Virus record (IMG/VR): IMGVR_UViG_3300027797_000003
Strand: one strand, 5' to 3'
Length of the DNA: 38,390 nt
Source: a virus
The notes under the pieces are model-generated. The model ran no database searches, had not been told where the DNA came from, and saw only the letters and a program-made list of their open reading frames with translations. Below, piece by piece: positions 7,752-24,407 of the stretch (position 1 is its first letter; every line of letters starts with the position of its first letter). The position numbers and the translations under genes are program-made.

Positions 7752-7763
7752 ATAAGCCTGTAG

Positions 7764-7771
7764 GTTCCCTA
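7764..7771 (-). promoter_or_regulatory. TAGGGAAC junction octamer (copy d)
   Basis: Plus strand reads gttcccta. The TAG is the stop of 7769..8365, and the next start (7751) is 12 nt downstream. Confidence 0.5.
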
Positions 7772-8365
7772 CGGCTTAGATAGACGGCTAAGGACATTTA
7801 TATAAGCCTTTTTGGAACCAGTGTTTAAAGCAGCCTTACCAGCCTTAGCACCTTTACTTACAGGTCCCAAACCGTAAGTGGCAGCCAACCATGCAAGGTC
7901 GGCTGGTTTACCTTTACCAGATATAATGTTTTGTAGTTCAGGCAAAGCAGCCATACCACCTGCACCAGAATTAATTATTGCACCAGAATAATCGCCTTGT
8001 TTAAAACGGTCCCGTGCTTCCTGTCCAACAGTCCACGAATCACCAGTAGCCTTAAGACTACCAATAGGGTCAGATTTCAGCATGTTAACATCTTGTTTCA
8101 ACATTCCACCCAAACCAGACAAAACAGCCCACAACTTTGCGCTACCTTTATCCAACATGCCCATCTTAGGTTGTGGCTTCTGGCTGGCTTTGTAATTAGT
8201 CATTTGGTCGGTGGACAAATCTTTAGCATAGTTTTGCAAAGCCTTCATACCACTATCTTCACCATATGTAGCCAAACCACTAGGCAAAATCTGTTGAATA
8301 CTCCAAGGGTCAACAGGCTTAGGGGGTGTTGTTTGTGGCTTAGATTTCTTGAATCGTGCAGCCAT
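7769..8365 (-). CDS. Hypothetical virion protein, 198 aa
   Basis: ORF track; late-arm coding strand. Confidence 0.6.
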   Translation of the reverse strand: MAARFKKSKPQTTPPKPVDPWSIQQILPSGLATYGEDSGMKALQNYAKDLSTDQMTNYKASQKPQPKMGMLDKGSAKLWAVLSGLGGMLKQDVNMLKSDPIGSLKATGDSWTVGQEARDRFKQGDYSGAIINSGAGGMAALPELQNIISGKGKPADLAWLAATYGLGPVSKGAKAGKAALNTGSKKAYINVLSRLSKP

Positions 8366-8367
8366 AA

Positions 8368-9381
8368 CTACTTCTTTGTTGGTGGGTTGCCGTAACGCTG
8401 AACAGGCTTACTGGACTTAGGTCTTACTGTTTCCTTCTTCAATTTTGCTAGACGAGCATCTTTTTGCTTGTCGGTCAAAACTTTACGGGTACGATTCTTA
8501 TTTGCTATTGCAGCATTTTTATCTTGTGCAGCCCGCAAACGCATAGATGACTGTGTTTCCACAACAGGCTTATATGCTTTCTTTTTAGCACCAGTAGAAG
8601 AACCCATCTTTGAATCAGCCTTCTTAATTAGCCGTTCCTGCTGTTTACGCTGTTCTAAGTTAGCCAAACGGCGTTGAGTAGCCTTTTCGTCAGCAGTCAT
8701 ATAATCAGGTTTCTTACCTTCAAGACGCTTACCACGCTTTTCATAAGCCATAGCCTTACGGGCACCAGTATCAACCAACTCTTTACGGTTCATGGTACCA
8801 TACTTTTCCATAAGATACTTTAAGTTACCTTTGGCACGAGTATTAGTCCGAGAAGCACTCTTCAAAGAATCTTTAGTGATGGCAGCAATGTCGGAAACAG
8901 AAAGGTCATACCCTTCTTTTTTAGCGTAATCTTTTACTTTAGTAATTTGCCTTGTCAACGAATCTCTTCGTCCTTGCGAACCCTTGGTTAGAATACGGTC
9001 TGTTGCATCAATGACTTTGTTAAACTTTTCTGTTTCTTGACCAAAGTATGATTTAGCCTTGTCAAGTTTCATTGAGCCGCCACCCCAGCGTTCATTAACT
9101 TCAACCATTTTTTTGTCAATATATTTTGTGCGGTTAGCAGATTTGCGAGCCGCCTTTTCGGCGGGTCGTTCAGCAGCAAGTTTAGCATCATATTTAGCAC
9201 GGTCAGCAGCAGACTTAGCCCTATTGGCAGCAGACCTTTCAGCCTTAGTCATTGCTTTAGCGGGGACAGAAGCAGCCTTACGACCAACACTCTTAGTTGT
9301 TTTAGCAGTAGCCTTAGGTGCGTTAGCACTAAGGCGTTCTAATACCTTGCGAACAATGTCGTCGTAAGGACCCTTAGGCAT
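8368..9381 (-). CDS. Highly basic Lys/Ala/Arg-rich protein, 337 aa (virion-internal or DNA-binding candidate)
   Basis: K/A/R-rich composition throughout. Shares TKSVGRKA and a following MT(K/R)-E(K/R) segment with the 157-aa neighbour. Confidence 0.65.
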   Translation of the reverse strand: MPKGPYDDIVRKVLERLSANAPKATAKTTKSVGRKAASVPAKAMTKAERSAANRAKSAADRAKYDAKLAAERPAEKAARKSANRTKYIDKKMVEVNERWGGGSMKLDKAKSYFGQETEKFNKVIDATDRILTKGSQGRRDSLTRQITKVKDYAKKEGYDLSVSDIAAITKDSLKSASRTNTRAKGNLKYLMEKYGTMNRKELVDTGARKAMAYEKRGKRLEGKKPDYMTADEKATQRRLANLEQRKQQERLIKKADSKMGSSTGAKKKAYKPVVETQSSMRLRAAQDKNAAIANKNRTRKVLTDKQKDARLAKLKKETVRPKSSKPVQRYGNPPTKK

Positions 9382-9854
9382 TACTTGTTTCCCTTTTTCT
9401 TATTATACTTTTCACGCCCAGCCATACGGCGGGCTTCCATTTCATCTTGACGCTTAGCCCAAGCAGCCTGATTTTGTGCACGAGTTTCAGCCTTGCGTGC
9501 CTTAGCGGCAGCACTACTATCAGCCAAATATTTTTCACGACCAGCCCAATGCGCAGCAACATTCTTTTCACGCTTTTCCATACGAGTCATTTTGCTTGCA
9601 GCACCACTAGGCTTCTTAGGCTTAGGTGACGGCTTAGGGGCTGCTACACCACTCTTAGGTGGCTTAGGTGGCTTACGACCTGCACCACCAGTAGCGGTCT
9701 TAGCAGTAATCTTAGGTGCTTTACGACCAACAGATTTGGTTACAGAACCCATAGCGGCACGAACCTGTTTTTGTCCAACAGACATTCCCGAAGCAGCAAG
9801 TGCATCGGTGATGGCTTTTAGTAAAGCATTTTCGTCAATAGGTGGCTTAGCCAC
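9381..9854 (-). CDS. Highly basic Lys/Ala/Pro-rich protein, 157 aa
   Basis: GTG start overlapping the upstream TAG (TAGTGGCT). Contains KPPKPPKSGVAAPKPSPKPKKP; paralogous N-terminal segment to 8368..9381. Confidence 0.65.
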   Translation of the reverse strand: MAKPPIDENALLKAITDALAASGMSVGQKQVRAAMGSVTKSVGRKAPKITAKTATGGAGRKPPKPPKSGVAAPKPSPKPKKPSGAASKMTRMEKREKNVAAHWAGREKYLADSSAAAKARKAETRAQNQAAWAKRQDEMEARRMAGREKYNKKKGNK

Positions 9855-9991
9855 TAGTACATTGCTTTCTTAGACATCTTAGATGACTTAGCACCCTTAG
9901 ACTTTTTGCCCTTAGGATAGTTAGAGGTTTTTGTCCCCGCCTTAGGTTTAGCATCGGCATGGCTGGACAGAATCTTATATTTGACTGGCAT
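9854..9991 (-). CDS. Small Lys-rich basic protein, 45 aa
   Basis: ATG at 9991 has an AGGAG 5 nt upstream. The tracked longer start (10162) would overlap the upstream gene and a hairpin. Sequence MPVKYKILSSHADAKPKAGTKTSNYPKGKKSKGAKSSKMSKKAMY. Confidence 0.5.
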   Translation of the reverse strand: MPVKYKILSSHADAKPKAGTKTSNYPKGKKSKGAKSSKMSKKAMY

Positions 9992-10010
9992 AATACTCCT
10001 ATATACAGAA

Positions 10011-10036
10011 ATGGTGGGAGATTGCTCTCCCACCAT
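10011..10036 (-). terminator. Perfect 11-bp stem hairpin with GCAA loop in minus-sense RNA (attenuator/terminator candidate)
   Basis: atggtgggaga-ttgc-tctcccaccat. On the minus-sense transcript it is followed by UUCUGUAUAU. Confidence 0.55.
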
Positions 10037-10045
10037 TATCGGTTT

Positions 10046-10053
10046 GTTCCCTG
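10046..10053 (-). promoter_or_regulatory. CAGGGAAC junction motif (copy f)
   Basis: Plus strand reads gttccctg, between the stop of 10062..10481 and the 10011-10036 hairpin. Confidence 0.4.
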
Positions 10054-10061
10054 AATGGGGG

Positions 10062-10481
10062 TTATGCTCGGTAAATTGATACCGTGTTTGCGGCAGTGAA
10101 AACTGCAACATACGATGCCGATGATGCTGCTGCAACCGAAAAGGTTGCTGCTGCACCAACAAGTGTTACACCTGAAGCACCAGCGGTAACCACGATTGGG
10201 TGGGTTGCTGCGGCGACATTGACTACGGTGAATTGGAAACTTGAACCAACACCTTCGTCTGTGAACGCTGCACCAAGTTCCGCACCAGTTGGTGTGGTCA
10301 AGGTACGGGATGCTGTTGGGGTCATTGTGTACAGTGTTTTTGCTGCACCAGCAAGAGTTGCTGCTGTTTGCACGGTTGCTGCGTCAGTTGCTGCAACTAC
10401 CGTTACCAACTCTTCTTTGAGTGCCCAAGCGGCGAGTCGTGTACGGTCAATTGCACCATCAGTGTTTGATTTTAGTGGCAT
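10062..10481 (-). CDS. Ala/Thr/Val/Gly-rich protein, 139 aa (capsid decoration/head fibre candidate)
   Basis: First gene after the capsid gene, bracketed by two hairpins. The composition leaves both strands open; the antisense ORF 10084..10494 is rejected. Confidence 0.55.
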   Translation of the reverse strand: MPLKSNTDGAIDRTRLAAWALKEELVTVVAATDAATVQTAATLAGAAKTLYTMTPTASRTLTTPTGAELGAAFTDEGVGSSFQFTVVNVAAATHPIVVTAGASGVTLVGAAATFSVAAASSASYVAVFTAANTVSIYRA

Positions 10482-10530
10482 TTTTTATCCTTAAGTTTAG
10501 TTTTGTTTTTATTGTTGTTATTATAATAAT

Positions 10531-10546
10531 GGGGGCTTGCGCCCCC
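10531..10546 (-). terminator. GC hairpin gggggc-ttgc-gccccc after the capsid gene (GCAA loop in minus sense)
   Basis: Located 18 nt after the capsid stop inside an AT-rich spacer. No canonical U-run follows directly on the minus strand. Confidence 0.5.
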
Positions 10547-10563
10547 ACTATAGGATTTTTTGA

Positions 10564-11502
10564 CTAAGCAGTCTTAGCAGTCAACTTGCCTTGCTTTGCA
10601 GCATTGCGACAAGTGAGGTTACCATAACACATGATGAGTGCGTAACGAGCATCCAAGTCCTCTGGACGAACAAACTGTGTTTGTGCGAACCATTTGGACG
10701 AGTGACCAACCAAAGTTAGGTACTTGCTGTTCAAGAAGTACACTACACCAGCGGTGCAATGCTCATCGTAAACAACTGGAGCAGCCTTGAACAACAGGTT
10801 TTGGAAACCAGCATCTGCTGTCTTGGTGTCCGTGTAACGGAGTTGTGGTTGGAGCAATGCTTCGTACTTCTCAAACAAAGTCTGAGTTGTGAGAACCATG
10901 TCTGGGTGGTCGTTACCAACAGAAACGCTGTTGTAACCAGTTGAAAGTTGTGCAAGAGTCAACGCTGTTGCGGTGTTCTCTTCGTATGACTTCCAGTAGT
11001 CGTTACCAGTTGTTGCACGGTTGATACCGCCAACAGTTCCTGATGCTTCAACGATATTTCCAAGACCGTTCCAGTCTTTTCCATCGTTTCCAGTTCCATC
11101 ACCGTAGAACATTTGGTTGAAGCCTTCACGCATTGACTCTTCAGCCTGCATGATTTTGGCTTCCAACAAGTTAATGATTTCTTGTTCGCCGTTGTTCTTG
11201 GCTTCTTCAATACCGCTGATTGCGATAGAAGCAGCGTACTGCTTCCAATCGTATTCTGCGGCAGTGATTCCACCTTGTGAAGTCAACGAAATTGAATCGT
11301 AACCTGAGTACGACTTAACTGTTGAACTTGTTCCATAAATGAGTGGCTCAACAATTTTGGTTCCACCATTAAGCATACGGATGCGACCCTTGTCCTGAAG
11401 GAAGTAGGTCAACGGGCGTGCCGTGAAGATGTTGTCCGTGAGTTGGTCACGATAGTTTGCGAGCGTTGTACTTAACAGCGCATCAAAGTTTGGGTTTGAC
11501 AT
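10564..11502 (-). CDS. Major capsid protein candidate, 312 aa
   Basis: About 34 kDa ORF directly after the scaffold-like gene and followed by a hairpin. Portal-scaffold-capsid order as in T7 gp8-gp9-gp10. Confidence 0.7.
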   Translation of the reverse strand: MSNPNFDALLSTTLANYRDQLTDNIFTARPLTYFLQDKGRIRMLNGGTKIVEPLIYGTSSTVKSYSGYDSISLTSQGGITAAEYDWKQYAASIAISGIEEAKNNGEQEIINLLEAKIMQAEESMREGFNQMFYGDGTGNDGKDWNGLGNIVEASGTVGGINRATTGNDYWKSYEENTATALTLAQLSTGYNSVSVGNDHPDMVLTTQTLFEKYEALLQPQLRYTDTKTADAGFQNLLFKAAPVVYDEHCTAGVVYFLNSKYLTLVGHSSKWFAQTQFVRPEDLDARYALIMCYGNLTCRNAAKQGKLTAKTA

Positions 11503-11533
11503 TATAGTATCTTTCTAAAGTTTGGTTGATAGT

Positions 11534-12325
11534 TTAACTTGCACCCATTTGACGCTTAGCCGCTTCCCAAGCCTCTGCTACCGATGTAATAGGAACAAAA
11601 GTTTCATTGGTTGTACTAGCGGTAGCCGAGGCTCCACCAGATACAACCGCTGCTGCACGCTTCGCTTCCAACACACCATCTTCAACCTTCTGTTGAACCT
11701 GCTGTGCTGACTGCTCTGTCCGTGCTTTTGCAACCATTTTATCGTAAGCAATTTGCTTGTAAACGCCCTCAAGGTCCTCGGTGTTCATCCGCAAAGCGGA
11801 TGTCACAACTTCCTTGACATCAAAATCAGGATACTTGTTTTGCAATCCCTGAATCTCACGCTCAATAGCCTGTTGACTCTGGTAATCCTCAAACTGTGCT
11901 ATACGCTGGTCAAGTTCACGATACTTTGCATCCTCAGGACTGTAATCTTCGGGTTCAGAACCCTGAACCATCTGTTGTGCCTGTGAACGGGTAATACCGT
12001 AATGTTGACTTAATAGGTCAATCGTTGCCTTAGGGTCATTTTCCAAAGCCGCACTAAGCGCACTAGCAAACTGGAACTGGTCCCGTTGCTGAGATAACTC
12101 TTGTGTTTTTCTGGTATAATCCGCTTGACGCTGATAACCTGCGATAGCCTCTGAAAAAGGAACTTGCAATTCCTCACCATCAACCTTAATTGGAACTCTA
12201 TAATTAGAATATTCCTCAACGGATAATGTTGGTGTATCGGGTGCTTCTGTAATTACACTAGTTTCAGTTGACCCAGTACTTTCTAATACAGGTTCCGTTG
12301 CAGGTGTTGCGATTTCATCGCTCAT
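11534..12325 (-). CDS. Scaffolding protein candidate, 263 aa
   Basis: Acidic, E/Q/A-rich, helical-looking ORF between portal and capsid. Confidence 0.6.
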   Translation of the reverse strand: MSDEIATPATEPVLESTGSTETSVITEAPDTPTLSVEEYSNYRVPIKVDGEELQVPFSEAIAGYQRQADYTRKTQELSQQRDQFQFASALSAALENDPKATIDLLSQHYGITRSQAQQMVQGSEPEDYSPEDAKYRELDQRIAQFEDYQSQQAIEREIQGLQNKYPDFDVKEVVTSALRMNTEDLEGVYKQIAYDKMVAKARTEQSAQQVQQKVEDGVLEAKRAAAVVSGGASATASTTNETFVPITSVAEAWEAAKRQMGAS

Positions 12326-12378
12326 TAAATATGTTCTCCTATAGAGTCCTGAATGGTTGCTCTATATATCCACAAGGC

Positions 12379-12386
12379 GTTCCCTA
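12379..12386 (-). promoter_or_regulatory. TAGGGAAC junction octamer (copy b)
   Basis: Plus strand reads gttcccta. The TAG is the portal stop; the scaffold start is 53 nt downstream. Confidence 0.5.
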
Positions 12387-14120
12387 TTGGGCTGGAGGTT
12401 GTCCTTGCTGAAGCATAGCCATCATATCTGGGGCAGGTTCACCAGCAGGGGCAGGGGCACCAGAAGGTGCCGCAGCCCCAGCAGGAGCGGGGACAGGAGG
12501 GGTGCCACCTACTTGCTGCTGAGGCTGGGCTAGAAAATCATCAGGGTTCTTAACACCAAAACCGAACTGTAGCACATGTGCCGCAAGTTTAGACATGTCA
12601 ATAATACCTGCACCAGCAAACGGTGCCATAGCATCAACCAGTTGTAATGCCATTTGACGCTTAAAGGATTCGTTATGTGGTTGTGTTGAACCTGCTGCTA
12701 CTTCAAAGTCAAAATCACCTTGCAAATAGTCACGGTCATAGTTCACCCAAATTGGTTCACCGTCACGACCCATAACACGGGCAACTTGCTCACCTTGCAT
12801 AAACTGTTGTGCCAATTGTAACATGCGGCGTGCAACCTCGGCAATAGCCTGTTCTACAACAGCCAACTTGTCGCTGGTGCGTGCGTTTGCAGCATCTTGC
12901 ATCAAGGATGATTCTGTTGCTGTGCGGCGGATTTCGGAGACAGCACCACGCTGAAACTCTGATACACCAGAAATACGGTCAATATCACCAATAATCATGT
13001 TAGACTGGTTATAGAACTCTGGTGGGTTAATTACCGCTGGGAAGGCTGTAACAACACCACCCAAAGGTTCATCACTAGTAACTGGAACCATAACATTATC
13101 TTCATCAGATTCTAATGCTGAACGACCCAATTGGTCAAACGCTGATTCCTTATACAGATATTTGCGGCTAAACTTTTTGCGATGATTCATCATCTGTGAA
13201 CGAGTTTCGTTTAGTTCTCGTTGCAAAGGTTCAATAGATTCCAAATCGCCAATAGGATAGAAATGGTCTGGAACATCATAGTTCCTAATCATAACAAATG
13301 GTTGCCCAAACGCATAAGGCATTTTCATTGGCTTAACCAAAAACATGTCTGAACCTTCAGCAAAAACGCTCATACTATTTGAAGCAATATCGTAGTATTC
13401 CCAAATCTCTGCGTAACCCTCATTTTTGTCGTACACCTTACGGCGACTAGGGTCGTCCGTGTAACGGCTAACAGCCATAGGGGACACATCAATGCGGGCA
13501 GCCTTATTATAACGCTTATCGTTACGGACATCAGCAATAGGGCGGCGGATACGCTGCGCTATCCACTTAATGTCTTTCATTGATGTCGCATCTGGGTCCA
13601 CAAAAATATCGTTAACAGAAACACGCTCAGCAAACGGACTGTCCTCACGAACAATAGTGTTCGGATGTCCGATGCCATCAGGGTTTGCTTCCGAAATCTC
13701 TGCTTCACCTTCAACTTCCTCCTCAACAAAACGGTAACCTACTTTAATCCAACCATGACCGAACGCCAGCATGTCTTTGACAGTGCGGCGAAACTCTGTG
13801 CGAATATCTTTATGTTTCCACCAATAGTTTACAACAGCCTCAGCAACAACACCCTGTGGAGCAAACTCTGCACTGGTAGCATTGACAGTAATCTTAGGGT
13901 AGTTAACAGAAATACTAGGTGAGATAACATTGATTGTGGAAAAGGCAACATTGACCAACATTTGGTCCTCGTTTTTGTAGTCATCAAAATGTTTTCCACG
14001 ATACAGGTCATTCATGCGCTTCCAAAGCCCATCGTAACCGTCTTGTTTGCGCCATTTCTTTGATGCTTCAAGACGCATTTTAGCATGTTTTAGATGGTCT
14101 GCACTAGTTTTCTTAGCCAT
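12384..14120 (-). CDS. Portal protein candidate, 578 aa
   Basis: Size and position (between TerL and scaffold). Low-complexity P/A/G/Q C-terminal tail. Confidence 0.7.
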   Translation of the reverse strand: MAKKTSADHLKHAKMRLEASKKWRKQDGYDGLWKRMNDLYRGKHFDDYKNEDQMLVNVAFSTINVISPSISVNYPKITVNATSAEFAPQGVVAEAVVNYWWKHKDIRTEFRRTVKDMLAFGHGWIKVGYRFVEEEVEGEAEISEANPDGIGHPNTIVREDSPFAERVSVNDIFVDPDATSMKDIKWIAQRIRRPIADVRNDKRYNKAARIDVSPMAVSRYTDDPSRRKVYDKNEGYAEIWEYYDIASNSMSVFAEGSDMFLVKPMKMPYAFGQPFVMIRNYDVPDHFYPIGDLESIEPLQRELNETRSQMMNHRKKFSRKYLYKESAFDQLGRSALESDEDNVMVPVTSDEPLGGVVTAFPAVINPPEFYNQSNMIIGDIDRISGVSEFQRGAVSEIRRTATESSLMQDAANARTSDKLAVVEQAIAEVARRMLQLAQQFMQGEQVARVMGRDGEPIWVNYDRDYLQGDFDFEVAAGSTQPHNESFKRQMALQLVDAMAPFAGAGIIDMSKLAAHVLQFGFGVKNPDDFLAQPQQQVGGTPPVPAPAGAAAPSGAPAPAGEPAPDMMAMLQQGQPPAQ

Positions 14121-14323: not shown

Positions 14324-14326
14324 TTG

Positions 14327-14551
14327 TTACATCCAGTTCGTGACTGGTTCAGCATTGTACCCGTTAATTGCAGCCTGTTCAACAGTTTGACGCTGACGCT
14401 CACGAATAGTAGGACCATGAAAATCTTCTTGACCGTAAGTAAACCCAAGACGCACCCCTTTAATATGGCATTTAAAACATGTAAACCCACGACGAGGAAC
14501 CTCATCAACATAAAACGCTTTATTGCAATTTTCGCACATTAATTCCATCAT
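14327..14551 (-). CDS. Zinc-ribbon protein, 74 aa
   Basis: CENC...x18...CFKC, two CxxC pairs. Confidence 0.55.
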   Translation of the reverse strand: MMELMCENCNKAFYVDEVPRRGFTCFKCHIKGVRLGFTYGQEDFHGPTIRERQRQTVEQAAINGYNAEPVTNWM

Positions 14552-14564
14552 AAAAGCACAATCT

Positions 14565-14572
14565 GTTCCCTA
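14565..14572 (-). promoter_or_regulatory. TAGGGAAC junction octamer (copy e)
   Basis: Plus strand reads gttcccta. The TAG is the TerL stop; the next start (14551) is 13 nt downstream. Confidence 0.5.
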
Positions 14573-16596: not shown

Positions 16597-16635
16597 AAAA
16601 CCATCCTAAATGACCGTAGTCATTGATTGGGAATA

Positions 16636-17181
16636 TTACTTAACTGATTCTTTCCAAGCCAACACGGCTTGTGGAGTATCATCTCCAGCGACATAACGGA
16701 TATGCCAAGGTTCATCGGGAACAACTTCCCAAGACCAACCAAACTTTGCAATGTTATTAAACATCCATTCTAAACGCTTACCATTAGAACTGGCAACATC
16801 AACTGCTACACCCAACATGTGTTTTGAACATGTTTTGGCATCATCGTTTGGTGCAGCCAATGGCGCATTTTTGGGTTTCAAAAACCATTTCTTACCATTG
16901 TAGGTGCGTGTTGACGCACCAACAATAGGTTCTTGTTGATAGCGTTGCAGAAAACCCTTTTTTTGTTGCGCTATACTGCGAAACATATCACCGCTACTAG
17001 TCGGAGTTAGCAATATGCCATCCGCTTTAGCAGCAGCAACCAATGCCTCCCAAGCATCAGCCACACACAACTCTAAAGAACCACCACCAATAGACTTACG
17101 CAACATAGCAGGGGTCACCTCACTAGGTTTCTTGCCCTTAAGATGTGAGCAAGGCTTAAATGGTGTTACAAATAGTTTCAA
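16636..17181 (-). CDS. Peptidase M15 (VanY / D-Ala-D-Ala carboxypeptidase-like) endolysin
   Basis: Zn-ligand pattern SKHMLGVAVDV plus EPWHIRY. The tracked start is TTG directly after the upstream TAG, so the true start is uncertain. Confidence 0.7.
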   Translation of the reverse strand: MKLFVTPFKPCSHLKGKKPSEVTPAMLRKSIGGGSLELCVADAWEALVAAAKADGILLTPTSSGDMFRSIAQQKKGFLQRYQQEPIVGASTRTYNGKKWFLKPKNAPLAAPNDDAKTCSKHMLGVAVDVASSNGKRLEWMFNNIAKFGWSWEVVPDEPWHIRYVAGDDTPQAVLAWKESVK

Positions 17182-17430
17182 CTATTTGGCTGCTTTCTTA
17201 GCAGCCTTCTTAACAGTCAACGGCTTACCCTGAGAAGCCTTAGAACCAATAAAAGATGCGACTGTTGGGTCACCAATCTTTGTTGATGCCCACGACAAAC
17301 CAGCAGCCACCAACGGCATAGCCATAGCAGTCAAAGCAGGGTCAACATTATACTTTACACACAAATAAACAACAATACCCAAAACACCACCCTTAGCGGT
17401 TTGGTCAACTGACTGATTACGATTATTCAT
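17182..17430 (-). CDS. Holin-like membrane protein, 82 aa
   Basis: Two hydrophobic segments (GVLGIVVYLCV, ALTAMAMPLVAAGLSWA) and a Lys-rich C-terminus. Lies immediately upstream of the endolysin. Confidence 0.55.
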   Translation of the reverse strand: MNNRNQSVDQTAKGGVLGIVVYLCVKYNVDPALTAMAMPLVAAGLSWASTKIGDPTVASFIGSKASQGKPLTVKKAAKKAAK

Positions 17431-17590
17431 TTTTATCTCCTAAGAGTGCACCAAGCATGTGAACCATGATGGCTACCAATGTGATTTGTATTCCCAATGT
17501 TCTAGTTGAACCAGACAAAGTGATTAGAACCATACCAGTTCCAGCCAATGTCCATGTCAAACTATGAATCTCGGATACAATTTTCTTCAT
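17423..17590 (-). CDS. Small two-helix membrane protein, 55 aa (holin/antiholin partner candidate)
   Basis: Below the track size cut-off. ATG at 17590; sequence MKKIVSEIHSLTWTLAGTGMVLITLSGSTRTLGIQITLVAIMVHMLGALLGDKNE. 8-nt overlap with the next start. Confidence 0.45.
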   Translation of the reverse strand: MKKIVSEIHSLTWTLAGTGMVLITLSGSTRTLGIQITLVAIMVHMLGALLGDKNE

Positions 17591-17598
17591 ATAGTAGT

Positions 17599-19092
17599 CT
17601 ATTTGTTCCTTCTTGTACCAGCCGCAACAGTGGCTGCCCCAGCAGCAACTGCTATAAGGGTTCTACGAGTATCCACAGGAACAGTAGACCCCAACGGAAC
17701 ATAATCACCTAAACCATCATCAAACACATTTATCGTTTCCTCAAACGCATTTCTTACCTGCGTAGGAGCATCCTGAACTGCATCAACCAAAGCATCCAAC
17801 TGGGTGTTATCTAATACGGTTACATCCAAGGTTTCAAAAATTTCTGTTGCCTGTTCAGCAGTTACTACAGCCAGAACTTCAGTGTTAGATGCTAATGATA
17901 CTGCTTGGTCGGCTGTTACAGCCGTACCAAGAATCTGTTCAATCAAAGCAACCGCCTCAACCTCGGTCAAATCTTCTATAGAATCAACCACAGTGTCAAA
18001 CTGTTCATCAGTTAAAGATATATCACCATCACCAGCGTCCTCCAAGGCTTGGACAAGTTCAAGTGGCAATTCCTCAAAGATTGCTGGCGGAAGCAACACA
18101 GGCAGTTCTGGTGCGTCTGGGAAGATATCTGGAGGTAGTGGCATCATGTCGGGGGGTTCTGGCATAGTGTCAGGTGGCTCAAGTAACTGACCAACAAATG
18201 GTAGTGTATCAAATGTCTCAATAGTAGGGTAAGTGTCAGGAGGTAGTTCTAATGTTTCTGGTGGATATGTTTCAATCTCTGGTAGTACGAGGGGTGGTAC
18301 CTCTGGCATGGTTGGTGGCTCTATTTGTGGTAGAGGAACCGTTGCTGGCGGGTCTGGTATTGTCGGCTCTGGTTGGGGTATGTAAATTATTTGAGGTATC
18401 GTAATAGTTGGTGGGTTTGTTACAGTCACAGTCCCATAGGGTGCAATAGTAGTAGTGGTTGTCGTTGATGTCGTGGTAGTCGTGGATGTTGTGGTAGATT
18501 CCCATGATGTTGTTGTTTCCTGAACTGTAGTTGTGGTGGATGGCAAAGTTGTTGTAGTAGTAGTTGTGGGACTAGCAGTTGTTGTAAACGCCTCATCAGG
18601 AACCATAGTCCATCCCTGATTGTTGATATTCCAAGCAAGCATTACGCATGTTGACCCGCCATCTTCGTACATCCAAACATCCAAAGGATGGCTGTCTGCA
18701 CTAATGTCTATCGGACCTGATGACATCCATGTGCAATGCTGATAATTCCAGTTACCCCACTCATTACCATTAATATTGATTATGCCACCGTCATCTGTTG
18801 CATACATAAACTCAATCGTATTATGTTCAGGGATTTCTATAAACCCCGTCATATGCACCATAAAATAGTCAACAGTGCAGTCCTCAAACGGTTCACCGTT
18901 GTAAGAACGGTTAATGTTGTTTTCTACTTCACTACCGCACTCGGTATAGATGTCATCTGACCGTGTAGGAGGTACTTCGTCAATTGTGTAGTAAGTAGTT
19001 TGTAGCCCTGCTATTGGTTCAGCGTGGACAGTTGGGGTAAACAGTGCAAGTATTGCTACTGGCGCAAATATCAGCCAACGGGAATAACGCAT
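17599..19092 (-). CDS. Secreted, C-terminally anchored PA14-domain protein with Thr-rich and Pro-rich linkers, 497 aa
   Basis: Signal-like N-terminus MRYSRWLIFAPVAILALFTPTVHA|EP. PA14-like pattern GLQTTYY...DYFMVHMTGFIEIPEHNTIEFMYATDDGGIININGNEW. Poly-Thr tract, P/E-rich repeats, an acidic region, and a terminal hydrophobic helix plus TRRNK. Confidence 0.65.
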   Translation of the reverse strand: MRYSRWLIFAPVAILALFTPTVHAEPIAGLQTTYYTIDEVPPTRSDDIYTECGSEVENNINRSYNGEPFEDCTVDYFMVHMTGFIEIPEHNTIEFMYATDDGGIININGNEWGNWNYQHCTWMSSGPIDISADSHPLDVWMYEDGGSTCVMLAWNINNQGWTMVPDEAFTTTASPTTTTTTTLPSTTTTVQETTTSWESTTTSTTTTTSTTTTTTIAPYGTVTVTNPPTITIPQIIYIPQPEPTIPDPPATVPLPQIEPPTMPEVPPLVLPEIETYPPETLELPPDTYPTIETFDTLPFVGQLLEPPDTMPEPPDMMPLPPDIFPDAPELPVLLPPAIFEELPLELVQALEDAGDGDISLTDEQFDTVVDSIEDLTEVEAVALIEQILGTAVTADQAVSLASNTEVLAVVTAEQATEIFETLDVTVLDNTQLDALVDAVQDAPTQVRNAFEETINVFDDGLGDYVPLGSTVPVDTRRTLIAVAAGAATVAAGTRRNK

Positions 19093-20004
19093 CTAAAATG
19101 TTATTGTGCCAGAACCAGTAAAAGTATAAACATGATACCCTGCACGACTTGATGAACTGTATGTTGGCGAACCTGTAGTAGCCAACGCTTCATCAAAAGC
19201 ATTTGTGTAAGCAATAATAACTACGCCTGAACCACCACTACCCGAAGTGGCTGCGTTGTCGGATGAGGCACCACCACCCGAACCTGTGTTGGCTGTAGCG
19301 TCAGTACTAGACCCACCAGCAGTTGCACCGCCACCGCCACCTGCGCCGTTGCCGACTCCAGAAAAACCACCGCCACCACCGCCACCTGCTCTAGATGTAT
19401 TCGTGCCGTTAATGCTGCTATTAGTGCTTGTTCCTCCAGCAGCACCTACACCTGTTTGAGCATTTGTTCCAACACTTGACGAACCACCACCACCTGAAGC
19501 CACATTGGTTGCATTGGCGGCAGGTGTGGAACCACCATCAAAACCTTGTCCACTTGTAGCAGCACCACCAGCACGCAACACACCTGACGAAGCACCTGCG
19601 CCACCACCCGAACCGCCTGCACCACCGTTTGTGTTGTTGTTGGCACCAAATCCGCCACCATTTGAGGTTATGGAACTGAACACAGAGTTACTGCCAACGG
19701 TACCGTCAGAACCTAAGCCTGTGCTTTTTGCACCGCCAGCACCAACGGTAACAGTTAATGCTGTTCCAGATGCAACAGCAAAAGATGCACTAGTAAGATA
19801 TCCACCCGCTCCACCACCACCGCCACAGCCACCTCCACCGCCTCCACCGCCAGCAATAACTAGATATTCAACAGTTGGTGTTGGATTACTTGCAGCAGCA
19901 GACCAGTATGTTGCAACCTGACCAGTGTTATTGCGTTGACGCTTCGGTTGTTTCCAAGAAGCAACCGAAGTACCACCAGAAACGTTTCTTAAAAAAGAAG
20001 GCAT
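19093..20004 (-). CDS. Glycine-rich fibre-like protein, 303 aa (paralog of 20364..21299)
   Basis: Shares the MPSF..N.SGG N-terminus, the YLV(I/V)AGGGGGG core and the C-terminal ATTGSP(T/S)Y...GYH(V/I)YT..G(S/T)G(T/S)IT with the other copy. Confidence 0.6.
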   Translation of the reverse strand: MPSFLRNVSGGTSVASWKQPKRQRNNTGQVATYWSAAASNPTPTVEYLVIAGGGGGGGGCGGGGGAGGYLTSASFAVASGTALTVTVGAGGAKSTGLGSDGTVGSNSVFSSITSNGGGFGANNNTNGGAGGSGGGAGASSGVLRAGGAATSGQGFDGGSTPAANATNVASGGGGSSSVGTNAQTGVGAAGGTSTNSSINGTNTSRAGGGGGGGFSGVGNGAGGGGGATAGGSSTDATANTGSGGGASSDNAATSGSGGSGVVIIAYTNAFDEALATTGSPTYSSSSRAGYHVYTFTGSGTITF

Positions 20005-20007
20005 GAT

Positions 20008-20364
20008 TTAACCTTCCAAAGTGGGAAAAGCAATCCAAGACAATGATTCTTCATCCCAAACAAAATTGCCTTCAGGTTTCGGTGTTGGTGGCTGCCAATC
20101 ATTATTGGCATCCAGCAACCAAGAAGGATAAGGTTGCAATGCCACAAACTGGTCTTTTACAGAATCGTAAGCAAAACCTACACCTGCATACTGTTTGCGA
20201 AAATTGTTGTTGTAAGAAGTTTGTACCCATTCGCCACCCAACAAACCATGACAAAAATCTTTACCCTTCTGTTCGCTTTCTACACCATCAATCAAAAGTT
20301 CATTGTTGTGAACAACAATAACATTAGTGACAATTCCATCTGTAATTTTTGCAAAGTGTGCCAT
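20008..20364 (-). CDS. Hypothetical protein, 118 aa
   Basis: Start moved to the ATG at 20364 (TAATG overlap with the upstream stop). Sequence begins MAHFAKITDGIVTNVIVVHNN. Confidence 0.6.
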   Translation of the reverse strand: MAHFAKITDGIVTNVIVVHNNELLIDGVESEQKGKDFCHGLLGGEWVQTSYNNNFRKQYAGVGFAYDSVKDQFVALQPYPSWLLDANNDWQPPTPKPEGNFVWDEESLSWIAFPTLEG

Positions 20365-21299
20365 TAGACCGTAATACTCCCTGTTCCTATCCAAGTATAA
20401 ATATGATAACCACCAGTTTTGTTATAACTAGGTGAACCTGTTGTTGCTGTAGCAACATCAAACGAATCAGCATAACGGACAATAACTATGCCTTGATAAC
20501 CTGCTTGACCTGTTCCATATAAACCACCACCACCACCGCCACCGTAGTAGGTTGATACGCCACCGTTGTTAACTGTTCCACCGTTTCCACCCCCACCGAC
20601 TCCACCAGATGCGTCACCAACGGAGTTATTGCCACCGCCACCACCACCAGAATATGCGGTTGATGAACCAGTTATAGACGAATAATGTCCTGTGCCACCA
20701 GTTGAGTTAGAAGTACTATCTGTTGCTGCTGCTCCTGCACCTCCACCACCACAAGCCTTTGCACTTCCACCACCATAATTGCCACCTCTAAAACCCTGAG
20801 TCGGTGAAGATAATGTTCCACCGTTTCCACCACGATTACCACCACCAGATGAACCACCAACAGAGCCATCCCTAGCAGTCGCATCGCCATAAGCACCACC
20901 ACCGCCACCAGTAGCAGTTATGGAACCAAGAACAGAGGCAAGACCATTACCACCATTTACTGTGCCACCTCCGCCAACGGTTACGGTGACAGCAACACCA
21001 GCGGTCACAGTTAAAACAGATTCTGCTGCTCCATTACCACCAGTAGTTTCACCAATAACAGAAGAACGGTAGCCACCACCGCCACCGCCGCCAGCAGGAT
21101 AACTAGCGTTTACTGCGCCTTGACCCCCGCCGCCACCACCAGCAACAACAAGATACTGAAAGTTCGGTGTAGGTGCAGAAGAAACCCCACCAGCCCAATA
21201 ATCGTTAACTTGATTAGTGTTGCCACGCCGTGAGCGTGGCGCAAGTGCGCCACCGCCAATGACCTTTCCTCCAGATGTATTTTTAACAAAAGAAGGCAC
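20364..21299 (-). CDS. Glycine-rich fibre-like protein, 311 aa
   Basis: GTG start; long poly-Gly/Gly-Ser/Thr body; paralog of 19093..20004. Confidence 0.6.
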   Translation of the reverse strand: MPSFVKNTSGGKVIGGGALAPRSRRGNTNQVNDYWAGGVSSAPTPNFQYLVVAGGGGGGQGAVNASYPAGGGGGGGYRSSVIGETTGGNGAAESVLTVTAGVAVTVTVGGGGTVNGGNGLASVLGSITATGGGGGAYGDATARDGSVGGSSGGGNRGGNGGTLSSPTQGFRGGNYGGGSAKACGGGGAGAAATDSTSNSTGGTGHYSSITGSSTAYSGGGGGGNNSVGDASGGVGGGGNGGTVNNGGVSTYYGGGGGGGLYGTGQAGYQGIVIVRYADSFDVATATTGSPSYNKTGGYHIYTWIGTGSITV

Positions 21300-21309
21300 T
21301 TAGCCAACC

Positions 21310-21678
21310 TTACGCAGTAATGCGGTTAACGTACCCGTAAACAACAATACTAGTGTTAGTTGCGGCATAAGCCGTAATAACCTTAGGGGTAGCATTACCC
21401 TGAAGAATAAGACCTGGAACTACTAGATACAAACCGTTTTCAGCCTTAACAGTATATTCAATTTCGTTTGTACCAGCAGTTACACCACCATACTGAATGG
21501 TAAGTTTGCGGTCAGTCGTATCATAGTTGACTGCATACAACCAAACTTCATCAATTGTTGCAGGAGTACTAGAACCTGTGTGAATAGTTGGACCAGCGAC
21601 ACCAGACGAACCAGAGTTAATCAATAACCCCAAACCGTTTGCTGTACCGCTTAATGCTAGTTTAGTAAAAGTTGCCAT
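21310..21678 (-). CDS. Hypothetical beta-rich protein, 122 aa
   Basis: ORF track. Preceded by TAGGGAAC and a GAAGGAAC SD-like element. Confidence 0.6.
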   Translation of the reverse strand: MATFTKLALSGTANGLGLLINSGSSGVAGPTIHTGSSTPATIDEVWLYAVNYDTTDRKLTIQYGGVTAGTNEIEYTVKAENGLYLVVPGLILQGNATPKVITAYAATNTSIVVYGYVNRITA

Positions 21679-21693
21679 ATACTATGTTCCTTC

Positions 21694-21701
21694 GTTCCCT
21701 A
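21694..21701 (-). promoter_or_regulatory. TAGGGAAC junction octamer (copy a)
   Basis: Plus strand reads gttcccta. The TAG is the stop of 21699..22016; the next start (21678) is 15 nt downstream. Confidence 0.5.
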
Positions 21702-22016
21702 ATTAATAAAAATCTGTTGCTCAACCGTATCTGTACGGTTAAATACTTCCAACTCCAACCACTCATCAGGGTCATTGTAATCAAAGTTTAATGTGTCAAA
21801 CTCCAACGGATAAACCCGTACAAAGTAATCGTTTGCCAAATCGCCACGAGTTGCACCTGTAGCACCTGCTGCTACATAAAAATCATACTCTAGAGTCCCA
21901 CGATACTGCAAACCCTTTTCAGACCAAAACGCATACAACAAGTCACCCAAAGTTTGACCCGTTGACGGATACGCCACGGATAGAGCCTCATACATGGCAT
22001 CATTAGTTGTAGTCAT
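21699..22016 (-). CDS. Hypothetical acidic protein, 105 aa
   Basis: ORF track; TAATG coupling to the upstream gene. Confidence 0.6.
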   Translation of the reverse strand: MTTTNDAMYEALSVAYPSTGQTLGDLLYAFWSEKGLQYRGTLEYDFYVAAGATGATRGDLANDYFVRVYPLEFDTLNFDYNDPDEWLELEVFNRTDTVEQQIFIN

Positions 22017-22453
22017 TATCTGTCCTTGCTAACCTTAGTATCCAAACGAAACCTCTGCTCTGATGCTGCGCTAGCGGCAATCAACTCAGTCAACTCACTA
22101 TCAGACAACTCACTGGCTTTGCCGCTATGTTCAACCTGAAGTTGAACGGGAGCCAAACGACCAGTAGCCTGCAAATACAACTTAGCCGAATTGTTATCCC
22201 CCTCAAGAGCACGCTGGAACAGGTTGTCCAGCAACTGTTGTGTTCTTTCGGGTGATTGCTGTTGTTCTGTTACTCTTCGTTCCCACTCGGATTTAAATAT
22301 AGGTTTCTTTTTCCAACGCCTGAGCGTTGTTTCGTCTATAGATTCTTGTTTGGCATACTGGTTTTGACTGGATGGTATCCGACCTACTGATGGGGTACAC
22401 AACCAGTTTAAAAACTTTTCTTGCCGTTCATCCAAGTTAGAGTTTTCTGACAT
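22016..22453 (-). CDS. Terminase small subunit-like / HTH DNA-binding protein, 145 aa
   Basis: First gene of the leftward arm. N-terminal HTH-like segment (SQNQYAKQESIDETTLRRWKKK) and a helical C-terminus. The call rests on position and architecture only. Confidence 0.45.
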   Translation of the reverse strand: MSENSNLDERQEKFLNWLCTPSVGRIPSSQNQYAKQESIDETTLRRWKKKPIFKSEWERRVTEQQQSPERTQQLLDNLFQRALEGDNNSAKLYLQATGRLAPVQLQVEHSGKASELSDSELTELIAASAASEQRFRLDTKVSKDR

Positions 22454-22470
22454 TCTATAGAAGCGGTACT

Positions 22471-22478
22471 GTTCCCTA
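22471..22478 (-). promoter_or_regulatory. TAGGGAAC octamer (copy c), 17 nt upstream of the first leftward gene
   Basis: Plus strand reads gttcccta. No upstream gene here, so the TAG is not a stop codon. Confidence 0.5.
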
Positions 22479-22493
22479 GGGGGACTAGGGGGA
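22476..22493. repeat. Perfect tandem duplication CTAGGGGGA x2
   Basis: ctaggggga at 22476-22484 and again at 22485-22493. Confidence 0.9.
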
Positions 22494-22494
22494 A

Positions 22495-22534
22495 TGTTAC
22501 AGTTGTGTTAATTCTTTGTTACATTTGTGTTACA
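22495..22534. promoter_or_regulatory. Three TGTTACA sites (near-palindromic TGT-N-ACA) at 22495, 22517 and 22528; operator candidates
   Basis: Start-to-start spacing of 22 and 11 bp (helical phasing) inside the divergent intergenic region. Confidence 0.5.
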
Positions 22535-22552
22535 GTTTGAGTGTTTTGTTGT

Positions 22553-22576
22553 GGGTGTTGGGTTTCACAAAAATGG
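22553..22576 (+). promoter_or_regulatory. Degenerate relative of the 22-bp rightward motif
   Basis: GGGTGTTGGGTTTCACAAAAATGG compared with GGGTGTGAGCGTCAAAGATAGG. Only a partial match with an apparent 2-nt insertion. Confidence 0.2.
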
Positions 22577-22579
22577 TCG

Positions 22580-22587
22580 TAGGGAAC
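22580..22587 (+). promoter_or_regulatory. TAGGGAAC octamer (copy g), plus-strand orientation
   Basis: gtcgTAGGGAACaggg in the divergent region, facing the early genes. Confidence 0.4.
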
Positions 22588-22641
22588 AGGGTGTTTTGAG
22601 TATGGGGGGTCAGGGGGGACTCAACCTGTTGGTTTCGTCCC

Positions 22642-22669: not shown

Positions 22670-22689
22670 CGAGATATTCTATTATACAA

Positions 22690-22695: not shown

Positions 22696-22731
22696 ACACT
22701 GGAATGTGTTTAGCGTGGACAAGGATGGGTT

Positions 22732-24392: not shown

Positions 24393-24407
24393 TCACGGTT
24401 GGTTGAG

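Follow-up and report, generated by a model that had tools for sequence, protein, structure and literature searches.

The window analysed here, the whole 38,390-nt stretch of viral DNA in IMG/VR virus record IMGVR_UViG_3300027797_000003, carries a short, oriented box, TAGGGAAC, that stands at the head of each gene block and at several junctions between genes (Table 1). On balance, and with moderate confidence, we regard this box as a phage-specific middle/late promoter element, possibly read through a 124-aa sigma region-4-like protein encoded by the same phage.

Across both strands of the genome, TAGGGAAC occurs 6 times against 0.80 copies expected, and none of 100 dinucleotide shuffles reached 6, bearing out an earlier note on this DNA that had called the octamer over-represented and had also correctly placed a single minus-strand variant, CAGGGAAC. 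All six exact copies lie within the non-coding 8.0% of the circular genome, an outcome that random placement would produce with a chance of about 0.08^6 by simple arithmetic, and the octamer copies are all co-oriented with transcription. The shorter word AGGGAAC is present 11 times and, contrary to the claim that every copy occupies a junction, four of these (1915, 29375, 31202 and 38249) are inside coding sequence; the base following the four coding copies is T or C, and a purine follows nearly all junction copies. ORF coordinates agree with the earlier assignment of the octamer's TAG as the upstream stop codon in four cases. The reported start distances also stand, with an ATG 12-17 nt downstream of five copies and 53-54 nt downstream of two, except that no gene begins at the ATG downstream of the plus-strand copy, where relatives have ATA or AGG.

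Table 1. Coordinates of the box copies, their downstream elements and the candidate regulatory features in the window.
Feature	Position	Strand	Description
Copy A TAGGGAAC	22471..22478	-	heads structural (late) block; 17 nt before TerS-like ATG (22453)
Copy A second box TTCTATAG	22455-22462	-	
Hexamer array	22495..22533	-	four box-like hexamers, GTAACA, GTAACA, TTAACA, GTAACA (late strand); exact 11-bp period; just upstream of copy A
Copy B TAGGGAAC	22580..22587	+	points into early/replication block; no gene starts there
Copy B downstream, GAGTAT	22598-22603	+	
Copy B downstream, G-runs GGGGGGTCAGGGGGG	22604-22618	+	follow GAGTAT
Copy C TAGGGAAC	21694..21701	-	TAG is stop of 105-aa gene (21699)
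Copy C second box TAGTAT	21679-21684	-	abuts ATG (21678) of 122-aa gene
Copy E TAGGGAAC	14565..14572	-	TAG is TerL stop (14570)
Copy E second box TTTTATGA	14548-14555	-	overlaps tandem ATGATG start (14551) of 74-aa zinc-ribbon-like gene
Copy F TAGGGAAC	12379..12386	-	TAG is portal stop (12384)
Copy F downstream, TATATA	12363-12368	-	then conserved leader GAGCAACC..., TAGGAG Shine-Dalgarno and scaffold-gene ATG (12325)
Copy G CAGGGAAC	10046..10053	-	after 139-aa gene; TAGGGAAC in relatives
Copy G downstream, TAATGG	10033-10038	-	
Copy G hairpin GGTGGGAG/CTCCCACC	10013-10034	-	then TAGGAG and ATG at about 9991
Copy H TAGGGAAC	7764..7771	-	TAG is stop of 198-aa gene (7769)
Copy H second box TTATATGA	7748-7755	-	overlaps ATGATG start (7751) of 83-aa gene
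124-aa protein	34757..35131	+	candidate trans-acting factor; sigma region-4 (-35-binding) HTH only; near end of early block

The element is bipartite, consisting of (TA)GGGAAC, a purine, about nine variable bases and then a TAGTAT-like box. Of 117 unique contexts, 96% have a purine directly after the octamer, and 8-15 nt beyond it comes a box rich in A/T and depleted of C; the earlier view that the flanks are not conserved holds only in part. This second box reads T-W-N-T-A-K-R, mostly 8-11 nt past the octamer. Immediately next to it is an ATG, a G-run or a hairpin, and the hairpins at copies F and G start directly 3' of it. Spacing between the two boxes is loose (5-14 nt across the unique contexts, mostly 7-11; only 5-7 nt at copy G), and no conserved -10 element was found 16-17 bp downstream of GGAAC in these contexts. 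The distance to the start codons had been judged too long for a Shine-Dalgarno element, which is right for the box itself; in some lineages Shine-Dalgarno-like AAGGA, GAGGA or AGGAG words lie inside the spacer. These words suggest that the spacer is transcribed, which speaks against placing the transcription start 3' of the second box.

About 80 related phage contigs (785 kb) were compared, and the box was found at the same junctions in these relatives. Late-sense copies number 141 vs about 9 expected, and of 20 antisense copies in the relatives' TerL loci, 19 belong to the early-pointing class of copy B. Conservation at orthologous junctions, which the earlier note had proposed as a check, is extensive: a GGGAAC, GGAAC or AGAAC box is present in 42 of 42 distinct TerL junctions and is kept in 16 of 19 unique portal junctions, with flanks, spacers and even the stop codon varying while the box stays. 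In distant clades the core is found in degenerate form, as GGAAC or AGAAC. Orthologous copy C junctions likewise retain the box, followed either by an ATG at +15-17 or by an AGGAG beginning about there and an ATG at +27-29, and the leader stem downstream of copy F changes from AGAG..CTCT to AGAA..TTCT in another clade. The octamer's TAG is used as the stop in 9 of 16 distinct TAGGGAAC junctions at TerL, the remaining ones having their own TAA, TGA or TAG a few bases upstream; the copy H junction in relatives similarly shows a separate stop and then TAGGGAAC. Since many relatives end the upstream gene at a stop of its own shortly before the box, the role of the TAG as a stop codon is incidental, and the suggestion of translational coupling or of a link to the stop codon finds no support, given also that two copies have no upstream gene. 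The source phage is uncultured and comes from freshwater, and the box is found in dozens of relatives as well.

The genome has a single divergent intergenic region, and in it copies A and B lie back to back with 101 bp between them. Upstream of copy A, the array of near-identical hexamers is in phase with the box in several relatives, which points to protein binding on DNA. In four relatives (L003, L007, L014 and L068) the array is continued by the GGAACA of copy A at 10-12 bp; in the window an inserted G-run segment widens the spacing between array and copy A to 25 bp. On the other side, divergent relatives keep the layout of copy B, namely the box, about 10 nt, TAGTAT or TAGTAG, a G-run, a spacer and a further G-run. 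No sigma-70-like promoter was found upstream of copy A. The TerS-like ORF that follows it has no alternative start codon, and its ATG lies 16-17 nt from the box in most of the relatives inspected, with N-terminal coding length and codons varying.

A candidate for the cognate factor is the 124-aa protein, whose gene lies near the end of the early block, the usual location of late activators in phage genomes. It scores 24.9 bits against Pfam Sigma70_r4 (cut-off 24.1) and matches the NCBIfam sigma70-ECF C-terminus with E = 4.9e-7, the PDB sequence search returns FliA region 4, and a weak RinA-family match (E = 0.0045) falls below the cut-off. Its AlphaFold model, with a mean pLDDT of 65 that rises to about 75 in the C-terminal half, retrieves almost only sigma-4 domains with Foldseek, at target TM-scores of 0.7-0.86, including SigL-4, FliA and SigE-4 bound to -35 DNA and also SigH region 4. 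Homologues are encoded in 76 related loci across the whole phage group, and the recognition-helix core AKSHAWRK is nearly invariant among them down to 29% identity. Region 2 is absent from the protein, and no sigma region-2 partner was found among the phage ORFs. In MW202803, the closest GenBank phage, the syntenic sigma-4-like ORF has a different recognition helix and the junction motif differs too (...GGAAACG-N11-ATG). By analogy, and from this one case of co-variation (n = 1), the 124-aa protein possibly reads the box. Against this link, a hand alignment indicates that the protein and SigE have different residues across the recognition helix of SigE.

We therefore propose, as a model, a bipartite transcription signal with the octamer as its upstream half. 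Copy A would start the structural block and copy B would face the early block, and the other copies would re-initiate transcription inside the long operon of structural genes, at the short non-coding gaps that separate them; the tight gene packing would explain why the box often overlaps a TAG stop. The 124-aa protein may bind the GAAC-containing box in the way that sigma region 4 contacts a -35 element and thereby direct host RNA polymerase to these sites, with the A/T-rich second box serving as the putative melting region and transcription predicted to start within about 17 nt of the box. Genes whose ATG adjoins the second box would yield mRNAs with no leader or a very short one; where the start codon is farther away, the mRNA would have a leader with a Shine-Dalgarno sequence. 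The spacing matches none of the sigma-70, ECF and T7 rules: with a -35-type box, transcription would begin about 29 nt further on, within the TerS-like ORF, and the second box is not a canonical -10 because it abuts the ATG without the 6-8 nt discriminator. Of the three roles suggested in the earlier note, that of promoter is the best supported, by orientation, the back-to-back copies, the TATA-like box and conservation at orthologous junctions, and an RNA processing role is less likely.

Two alternatives that dispense with initiation at the box seem unlikely to us. The sites might be stoperator- or operator-like, with a phage regulator, possibly the sigma-4-like protein itself, blocking or modulating elongating RNA polymerase at one-way sites in short gaps and with the divergent-region copies acting as true operators, much like the L5/Cluster A repressor sites. 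The boxes are asymmetric, short-intergenic and in one orientation to transcription, as stoperators are (PMC9283540). The 11-bp-phased array adjoining copy A and the encoded HTH protein with its conserved recognition helix also fit such a scheme, but the gene content includes no integrase or repressor that we could find and looks lytic, a roadblock leaves the TATA-like box, the conserved purine and the fixed 12-17 nt start distance unexplained, and the sigma-4-like gene has the position of a late activator. Little credence, too, is due to a signal acting at the RNA level, in which UAGGGAAC, as part of the polycistronic mRNA, would serve either for endonuclease processing or as a start-associated signal for translation, recognised by a factor of host or phage. 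It would set the 5' end or recruit ribosomes, allowing starts 12-17 nt downstream without a normal Shine-Dalgarno sequence. The strict sense orientation, the fixed distance to ATGs mostly lacking a strong Shine-Dalgarno sequence, the use of ATG at all such genes seen, and the spacer words that place the spacer at least sometimes in mRNA would all be accommodated, and the Cluster K Start-Associated Sequences offer a precedent of oriented repeats before ATGs (PMC3203893). Against this, 3 of the 7 copies have no start codon beside them (there is no gene at B, and at F and G the leaders are 53-54 nt long and carry Shine-Dalgarno sequences of their own), further promoters for A and B would be needed within their 101 bp, the phased array is a DNA-level feature, and there is no conserved RNA structure around the box and no Rfam match. 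Nor is the box complementary to the anti-Shine-Dalgarno sequence.

The other two alternatives keep a promoter and change its reader. We consider it very unlikely that the box serves a phage-encoded RNA polymerase of an unrecognised kind, even though the layout of specificity box, TATA-like box before the start and initiating purine or G-run resembles that of single-subunit promoters. T7-type promoters have TATA at -4 to -1, and such a geometry would account for leaderless starts as well as for second boxes abutting an ATG, a GGGGGG run or hairpins; several proteins, among them a 1730-aa virion protein, have no assigned function. However, searches with Pfam, PHROGs, NCBIfam and PDB sequences found no RNA polymerase domain in any ORF, none of the catalytic signatures sought (DxDxD, D[FY]DGD, R...K...YG, HD[SA]) occurs in the 1730-aa protein, and the spacer is unconserved and variable in length, unlike T7-type promoters, which are contiguous over 17-23 bp. 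A canonical ECF-sigma promoter, with GGAAC as the -35 of a host or phage ECF sigma factor and a -10 at 16-17 bp, is highly improbable. The GGAAC core does agree with the ECF -35 consensus, and the phage protein matches ECF-type sigma C-termini best, its model resembling region 4 of SigL, SigH and SigE, so that the earlier hint at ECF sigma factors was borne out as far as a region-4-like protein goes. It fails on the downstream half: 16-17 bp from the box lie the start codon or first codons of unrelated genes (for the TerS-like gene, the start itself at 16-17 nt) with no conserved element, the predicted transcription start would fall inside ORFs, including the TerS-like gene with its single possible start codon, and the phage protein has no region 2.

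Several known systems share features with the proposed promoter. Stoperators overlap stop codons, and they differ in being 13-mers for the immunity repressor of temperate phages, with no TATA-like box or fixed ATG distance. The likeness of the L5/Cluster A sites lies in their being asymmetric, short, strictly oriented, located in short intergenic gaps and many per genome (PMC9283540). Cluster K Start-Associated Sequences are likewise oriented, non-palindromic repeats just before starts with a strong ATG preference (PMC3203893). Their distance from the start is 3-7 bp and they include an AGGAG Shine-Dalgarno core, whereas the box described here is 12-17 nt away, is not Shine-Dalgarno-like and also occurs without an adjacent start. 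In Gram-positive siphoviruses, the small sigma-region-4-like proteins of the RinA/ArpU/Alt type, whose genes close the early region, activate the packaging/structural operon from terS, and the array of repeats upstream of the terS-side copy here is reminiscent of the Alt-type direct repeats; those systems have one late promoter, in contrast to the at least seven sites through the operon found here, one of which faces the early block. T4 middle promoters provide a further parallel, in that an activator box (MotA with AsiA, by sigma appropriation) replaces the -35 and stands nearer than usual to a TAnnnT -10, at 11-13 bp compared with about 9-11 bp between the boxes here. However, T4 middle transcripts start 6-8 nt after the -10, which is impossible here for the TerS-like gene, and no MotA or AsiA homologues were found among the phage ORFs. 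Phage phiEco32 gp36 and Salmonella phage 7-11 gp47 have experimentally defined short phage-sigma promoters, whose motifs are read by host RNA polymerase with a phage-encoded sigma-family protein (PMC8948821). These promoters (tAATGTAtA with a start 6-8 bp downstream, or GTAAtg-N16-aCTA) differ from the boxes about 10 bp apart and the second box abutting the start codon seen here, and their sigma proteins can form holoenzyme, whereas the window encodes a region-4 domain only. The likeness lies in short phage-specific motifs placed upstream of middle/late genes and at several places in the structural block (PMC8948821), and the window also encodes an adaptor domain of the SU10/phiEco32 type.

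The octamer (TA)GGGAAC, hereafter termed the box, recurs at gene junctions far beyond chance and is conserved across a large group of uncultured phages. An exhaustive count against a shuffled null, which the earlier note had proposed, finds TAGGGAAC six times where 0.80 copies are expected, a number reached in 0 of 100 shuffles; the seventh copy, at 10046, reads CAGGGAAC, and the positions originally assigned to the copies are correct. All six TAGGGAAC octamers fall within the non-coding fraction of the genome (8.0%, stop codons counted), and each is oriented with its local genes. The accompanying claim that every AGGGAAC lies at a junction is wrong, as 4 of the 11 copies reside within coding sequence; the coding copies are followed by T or C, whereas the base following the junction copies is nearly always a purine.

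The genome itself is that of a tailed phage with a G+C content of 43.8%, and because the terminal 127 nt of the window repeat its first 127 nt as a circular-assembly overlap, its true length is 38,263 bp. Scans for tRNAs and Rfam families returned neither, and no integrase or repressor family was matched among the scanned ORFs. One stretch within the early block reaches 58-61% G+C in this 44% genome, with no convincing ORF on either strand and no Rfam match. The nearest GenBank record is MW202803, an uncultured phage from Manatee Spring whose TerL is 52% identical; it was also the sole match in protein searches, which yielded no cultured relative and no host. At the nucleotide level the structural block matched none of 50,697 phage records, and a full-text literature search for the box 8-mer returned only unrelated primers. 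For comparison, we fetched 80 IMG/VR contigs with TerL identities of 67-99%, plus 79 around the helicase gene.

Coordinates of the genome features, signals and proteins discussed in the text
Feature	Position	Strand	Remarks
Terminal repeat	38264-38390		Repeats 1-127
Structural block	From 22453 downwards	-	TerS-like, TerL, portal, scaffold, major capsid, SU10-type adaptor, internal virion proteins
1730-aa gene	1-2945 and 36016-38310	-	Two ORFs joined over the circular junction; last of structural block
Early/replication block	22909-36025	+	AAA ATPase, exonuclease, DnaB-like helicase, primase, RusA, others
Divergent intergenic region	22454-22908		Only one in the genome
Hexamer array	22495-22533		Between copies A and B
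Repeat GGGGGnnnnGGGGG(A), two direct copies	22479-22493; 22604-22619
Candidate sigma-70 promoter	22665-22695		TTAACC, 19 nt, TATAAT
Candidate promoter with conserved AGCGTGGACA	22665-22721
G+C-rich stretch	23600-23950
Scaffold-gene leader	12325-12368	-	GAGCAACC...GGACTCTA
Hairpin 3' of the CAGGGAAC copy	10013-10034	-	8 bp, GGTGGGAG / CTCCCACC
186-aa protein	29088-29648	+	Early
124-aa protein	34757-35131	+	Near end of early block; C-terminal 70 residues form a sigma region-4 domain

Conservation at orthologous junctions, a further check suggested at the outset, is borne out in the relatives. Across their TerL loci (785 kb), the late-gene strand has 141 copies of TAGGGAAC where about 9 would be expected; the opposite strand has 20, of which 19 are the lone early-pointing copy found in the divergent region. 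Sorted by orthologous junction, the copies form about eight classes. Four lie ahead of a gene (the TerS-like gene, the 120-aa gene, a 76-aa gene and the 83-aa gene), one is the early-pointing copy, two fall between TerL and the 74-aa gene and between portal and scaffold, and one follows the 139-aa gene. A box is present in each of the 42 distinct TerL junction sequences (16 TAGGGAAC, 17 other GGGAAC, 5 GGAAC and 4 AGAAC), and one of these three cores is retained at all junction classes. The invariant portion is GAAC plus a purine, and the leading TA is frequent without being obligatory. A "concerted switch" of motif between clades was considered and downgraded, since distant genomes mix GGGAAC, GGAAC and AGAAC with the same recognition-helix core in the candidate reader described below. 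The earlier note had also stressed that the TAG of the box supplies the upstream stop codon. This is true at four copies of the window but is incidental, as relatives often use a separate stop: at the TerL junction, just 9 of the 16 TAGGGAAC copies supply the stop with their TAG, and the remainder have their own TAA, TGA or TAG a few bases upstream. The persistence of the box where the stop codon has separated from it argues that the box is selected for itself, and its overlap with stop codons reflects the minimal intergenic gaps of a tightly packed genome.

The box is accompanied by a second conserved element. Among 117 unique aligned contexts, the base 3' of the box is a purine in 96%, and positions 8-15 past it are A/T-rich and nearly free of C. 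EM alignment of 59 non-redundant sites resolves a second box, T-W-N-T-A-K-R-R (typically TAGTAT, TATATA or TAATAT), offset by 5 to 14 nt from the first, with 7-11 nt at 47 of the 59 sites and a mode of 10; a loose regular-expression scan for the bipartite motif was too noisy for quantitative use. The second box is rigidly tied to its 3' neighbor, and its offset from the first box shifts by a base or two within a class. In five gene classes that neighbor is an ATG within 0-3 nt; the early-pointing copy has a GGGGGG run in its place, and the portal and 139-aa junctions have a hairpin or a conserved leader. The hairpin downstream of the capsid and 139-aa genes has a weak U-tract and could serve as an attenuator for capsid transcripts or as a 5' stabilizer of the next transcript. 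The scaffold-gene leader is conserved, with orthologous leaders in related loci (L028, L035), and its AGAG/CTCT stem becomes AGAA/TTCT in another clade, a compensatory change that suggests a 5' hairpin just ahead of the Shine-Dalgarno sequence.

The divergent intergenic region carries two outward-pointing boxes back to back and 101 bp apart, copy A (22471, minus strand) heading the structural block and copy B (22580, plus strand) pointing toward the early genes. Between them lie four hexamers, GTAACA, GTAACA, TTAACA and GTAACA on the late strand (TGTTAC, TGTTAA, TGTTAC and TGTTAC read on the plus strand), which repeat with an exact 11 bp period, each with one or two bases changed relative to the box core. 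The box's own GGAACA extends the phase of the array at 10-12 bp in several relatives, and in another clade the array lies on the early strand. Helical phasing of this kind is a property of protein-DNA binding and not of an RNA signal, and the hexamers could be activator, operator or iteron sites. An arrangement with GTAACA boxes as -35 and TAGGGA as -10 elements was rejected because the spacing differs between the window and the related locus L003. About 100 nt downstream of copy B lies a candidate host-type early promoter, followed by the conserved AGCGTGGACA just ahead of the first small early ORFs; with such a promoter the host alone could start the early genes, and the box would act later. 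The second copy of GGGGGnnnnGGGGG(A), directly 3' of copy B and its TAGTAT, is kept in all relatives examined, with one or two hairpins between it and the first early gene; these elements could form a short structured RNA or an attenuator.

The candidate reader of the box is the 124-aa protein. Its score against Pfam PF04545 exceeds the gathering cut-off, the NCBIfam sigma-ECF C-terminus is matched at 4.9e-7, the RinA-family match is weak, and PDB sequence searches return FliA region 4. In an AlphaFold model built from 31 homologs (mean pLDDT 65, about 75 over the domain), nearly all top Foldseek matches are sigma-4 domains, among them FliA, SigL-4 and the complex of E. coli SigE-4 with its -35 DNA (target TM-scores 0.7-0.86, rmsd 1.3-2.2 A). 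By sequence signature and predicted fold, the protein thus has a region-4 helix-turn-helix. It is present in 76 related loci; its recognition helix keeps a nearly invariant AKSHAWRK core even in homologs of 29% identity, and an N-terminal EWLMxP (residues 29-34), which may be a polymerase- or sigma-contact motif, is invariant in 31 of 31 aligned homologs. Only about 64 clusters, all of metagenomic phage proteins, make up the family. No sigma-4-only protein was found in 185,579 species genomes, the single match being an irrelevant full-length cellular ECF sigma from a Planctomycetota MAG. In MW202803, a syntenic sigma-4-like ORF has a different recognition helix (TVAAWKQRAINKL), and the same junctions bear a different motif, CGTTTCYGAYGGAAACG, with the ATG 11 nt later; protein and motif change together in this one case. 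The 124-aa protein possibly reads the box. MW202803.1 also contains a palindrome, YGTTTC-N5-GAAACR, with 46 strand-matches (about 30 places) vs about 1 expected, found in both gene blocks and inside genes (e.g. 39216-39232, 41434-41450 and 30050-30066) and located 11 nt ahead of the ATG at the TerS-upstream and TerL-downstream junctions. It is a repeated signal of the nearest GenBank phage, analogous to the box yet different.

The position of the transcription start is constrained most tightly at the TerS-like gene. In most relatives shown, its ATG keeps a distance of 16-17 nt to the box while the count of N-terminal codons varies; the gene has no alternative start codon, and no other promoter, sigma-70-like ones included, was found ahead of it. 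Transcription would therefore have to begin within about 17 nt of the box, which excludes a canonical -35 role for the box (the start would lie about 29 nt downstream) and a canonical -10 role for the second box (a discriminator of 6-8 nt is needed). If initiation occurs immediately 3' of the second box, five mRNAs would be leaderless. Consistent with this, every box-proximal gene seen starts with ATG, hairpins start directly past the second box, and relatives show one of two arrangements at the 120-aa junction, an ATG at +15-17 or an AGGAG that begins near there and precedes an ATG at +27-29. Neither a phage RNA polymerase nor a region-2-like factor that could explain such a start was found. 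Alternatively, transcripts may begin at the conserved purine directly past the box and carry A/U-rich leaders of 12-17 nt, an arrangement favored by the Shine-Dalgarno-like AAGGA, GAGGA or AGGAG within the spacer of some lineages; a GGGAAC-based census of such sequences was too noisy for quantitative use. Metagenome contigs matching the conserved leader 3' of copy F, at the portal-scaffold junction, come from 54 loci and have ends scattered 60-270 nt upstream, a distribution uninformative on the start site.

A partner for the 124-aa protein was sought throughout the genome. The protein itself has no region 2, and no ORF matches that region. A gp55-type region-2-like sigma was not detected with PHROGs, Pfam, NCBIfam or PDB profiles, by which a very divergent one could escape. 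A split sigma was rejected: the 171-aa ORF that overlaps the 124-aa ORF upstream has no sigma match, the two ORFs are separate in all relatives, and the 136-, 163- and 186-aa proteins give nothing by Pfam, NCBIfam or PDB profile. The 171-aa ORF has an E-x-K segment suggestive of a PD-(D/E)XK nuclease. The 186-aa early protein, with no family or PDB match, has two helix-turn-helix-like segments conserved in relatives (IIEKLGITVEQF and NFAKIGRDYGTGVNTM) and is possibly another DNA-binding regulator. Searches for an RNA polymerase domain or its catalytic motifs turned up neither in any ORF; the 1730-aa protein, assembled across the 127-nt overlap and considered as a hidden polymerase, was rejected on the lack of Pfam, PHROG and PDB matches and of catalytic motifs.

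On balance, we lean toward the box being the upstream half of a phage-specific promoter. More speculatively, and in our estimation improbably, a free-standing region-4 domain lacking region 2 would re-target host RNA polymerase to a non-canonical promoter, with only about 10 bp separating its -35-type GGAAC from the melting box and about 15 bp separating it from the start codon, to produce leaderless late mRNAs. If true, this would constitute a new form of sigma appropriation among widespread uncultured freshwater phages. If the boxes are promoters, they supply a transcription map for a common group of uncultured freshwater phages of ~38 kb, with one head-of-operon site per gene block and internal sites that precede the modules for packaging, head and tail. 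They would also offer a testable mechanism, whereby a phage protein consisting of the -35-binding domain only might redirect the host polymerase to sites outside its usual -35/-10 spacing rules and might also yield leaderless mRNAs where the host normally relies on Shine-Dalgarno sequences. For recognizing and annotating this phage group in metagenomes, the bipartite motif and the near-invariant AKSHAWRK helix core serve as simple markers.

Several known systems share features with the box. The earlier note had pointed to ECF sigma factors, and a GGAAC-type -35 core is indeed present, but the class fails on the -10 element and on a sigma factor with regions 2 and 4: no CGT- or TC-type -10 lies 16-17 bp past GGAAC, profile and EM alignments show only the A/T-rich box, mostly at 8-11 nt, and positions +16 to +22 hold the start codon or opening codons of unrelated genes, or the G-run. 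The single-block T4 late promoter (TATAAATA, read by gp55) is an 8-bp block centered near -10 with the start 6-8 nt downstream. The phage has an 8-bp block, and a start 6-8 nt past it would be compatible with all start codons, but a second conserved box also exists, and this class fails on a phage-encoded gp55-type region-2-like sigma. T7-type promoters, rejected because no phage-encoded single-subunit RNA polymerase was found, are contiguous blocks of about 17-23 bp up to the start site, whereas the phage has two short boxes with an unconserved spacer of variable length.

Other likenesses are geographic. The box matches the distribution of the stoperators of mycobacteriophage L5 and Cluster A, which are also asymmetric sites in short intergenic spaces with one orientation relative to transcription (PMC9283540). 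Cluster A phages, however, are temperate and encode an immunity repressor, whereas no integrase or repressor family was matched among the scanned ORFs of the present phage. Start-Associated Sequences of Cluster K phages (PMC3203893) have a partly similar geography. They lie 3-7 bp from the start and contain the Shine-Dalgarno core, whereas the box is 12-17 nt or 27-55 nt away and lacks AGGAG.

Close parallels are provided by the T4 MotA-box promoters, in which an activator box lies nearer to -10 than a -35 element would, and by the small sigma-4-like late activators of the RinA/ArpU/Alt type. Functionally closest are the phage-specific middle or late promoters read via a phage-encoded sigma-family protein, exemplified by the phiEco32 gp36 promoter (tAATGTAtA, start 6-8 bp downstream) and the phage 7-11 gp47 promoter (GTAAtg-N16-aCTA) (PMC8948821). 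The kind of element is already known; what is new is the combination of a candidate region-4-only factor with a spacing outside any known holoenzyme rule.
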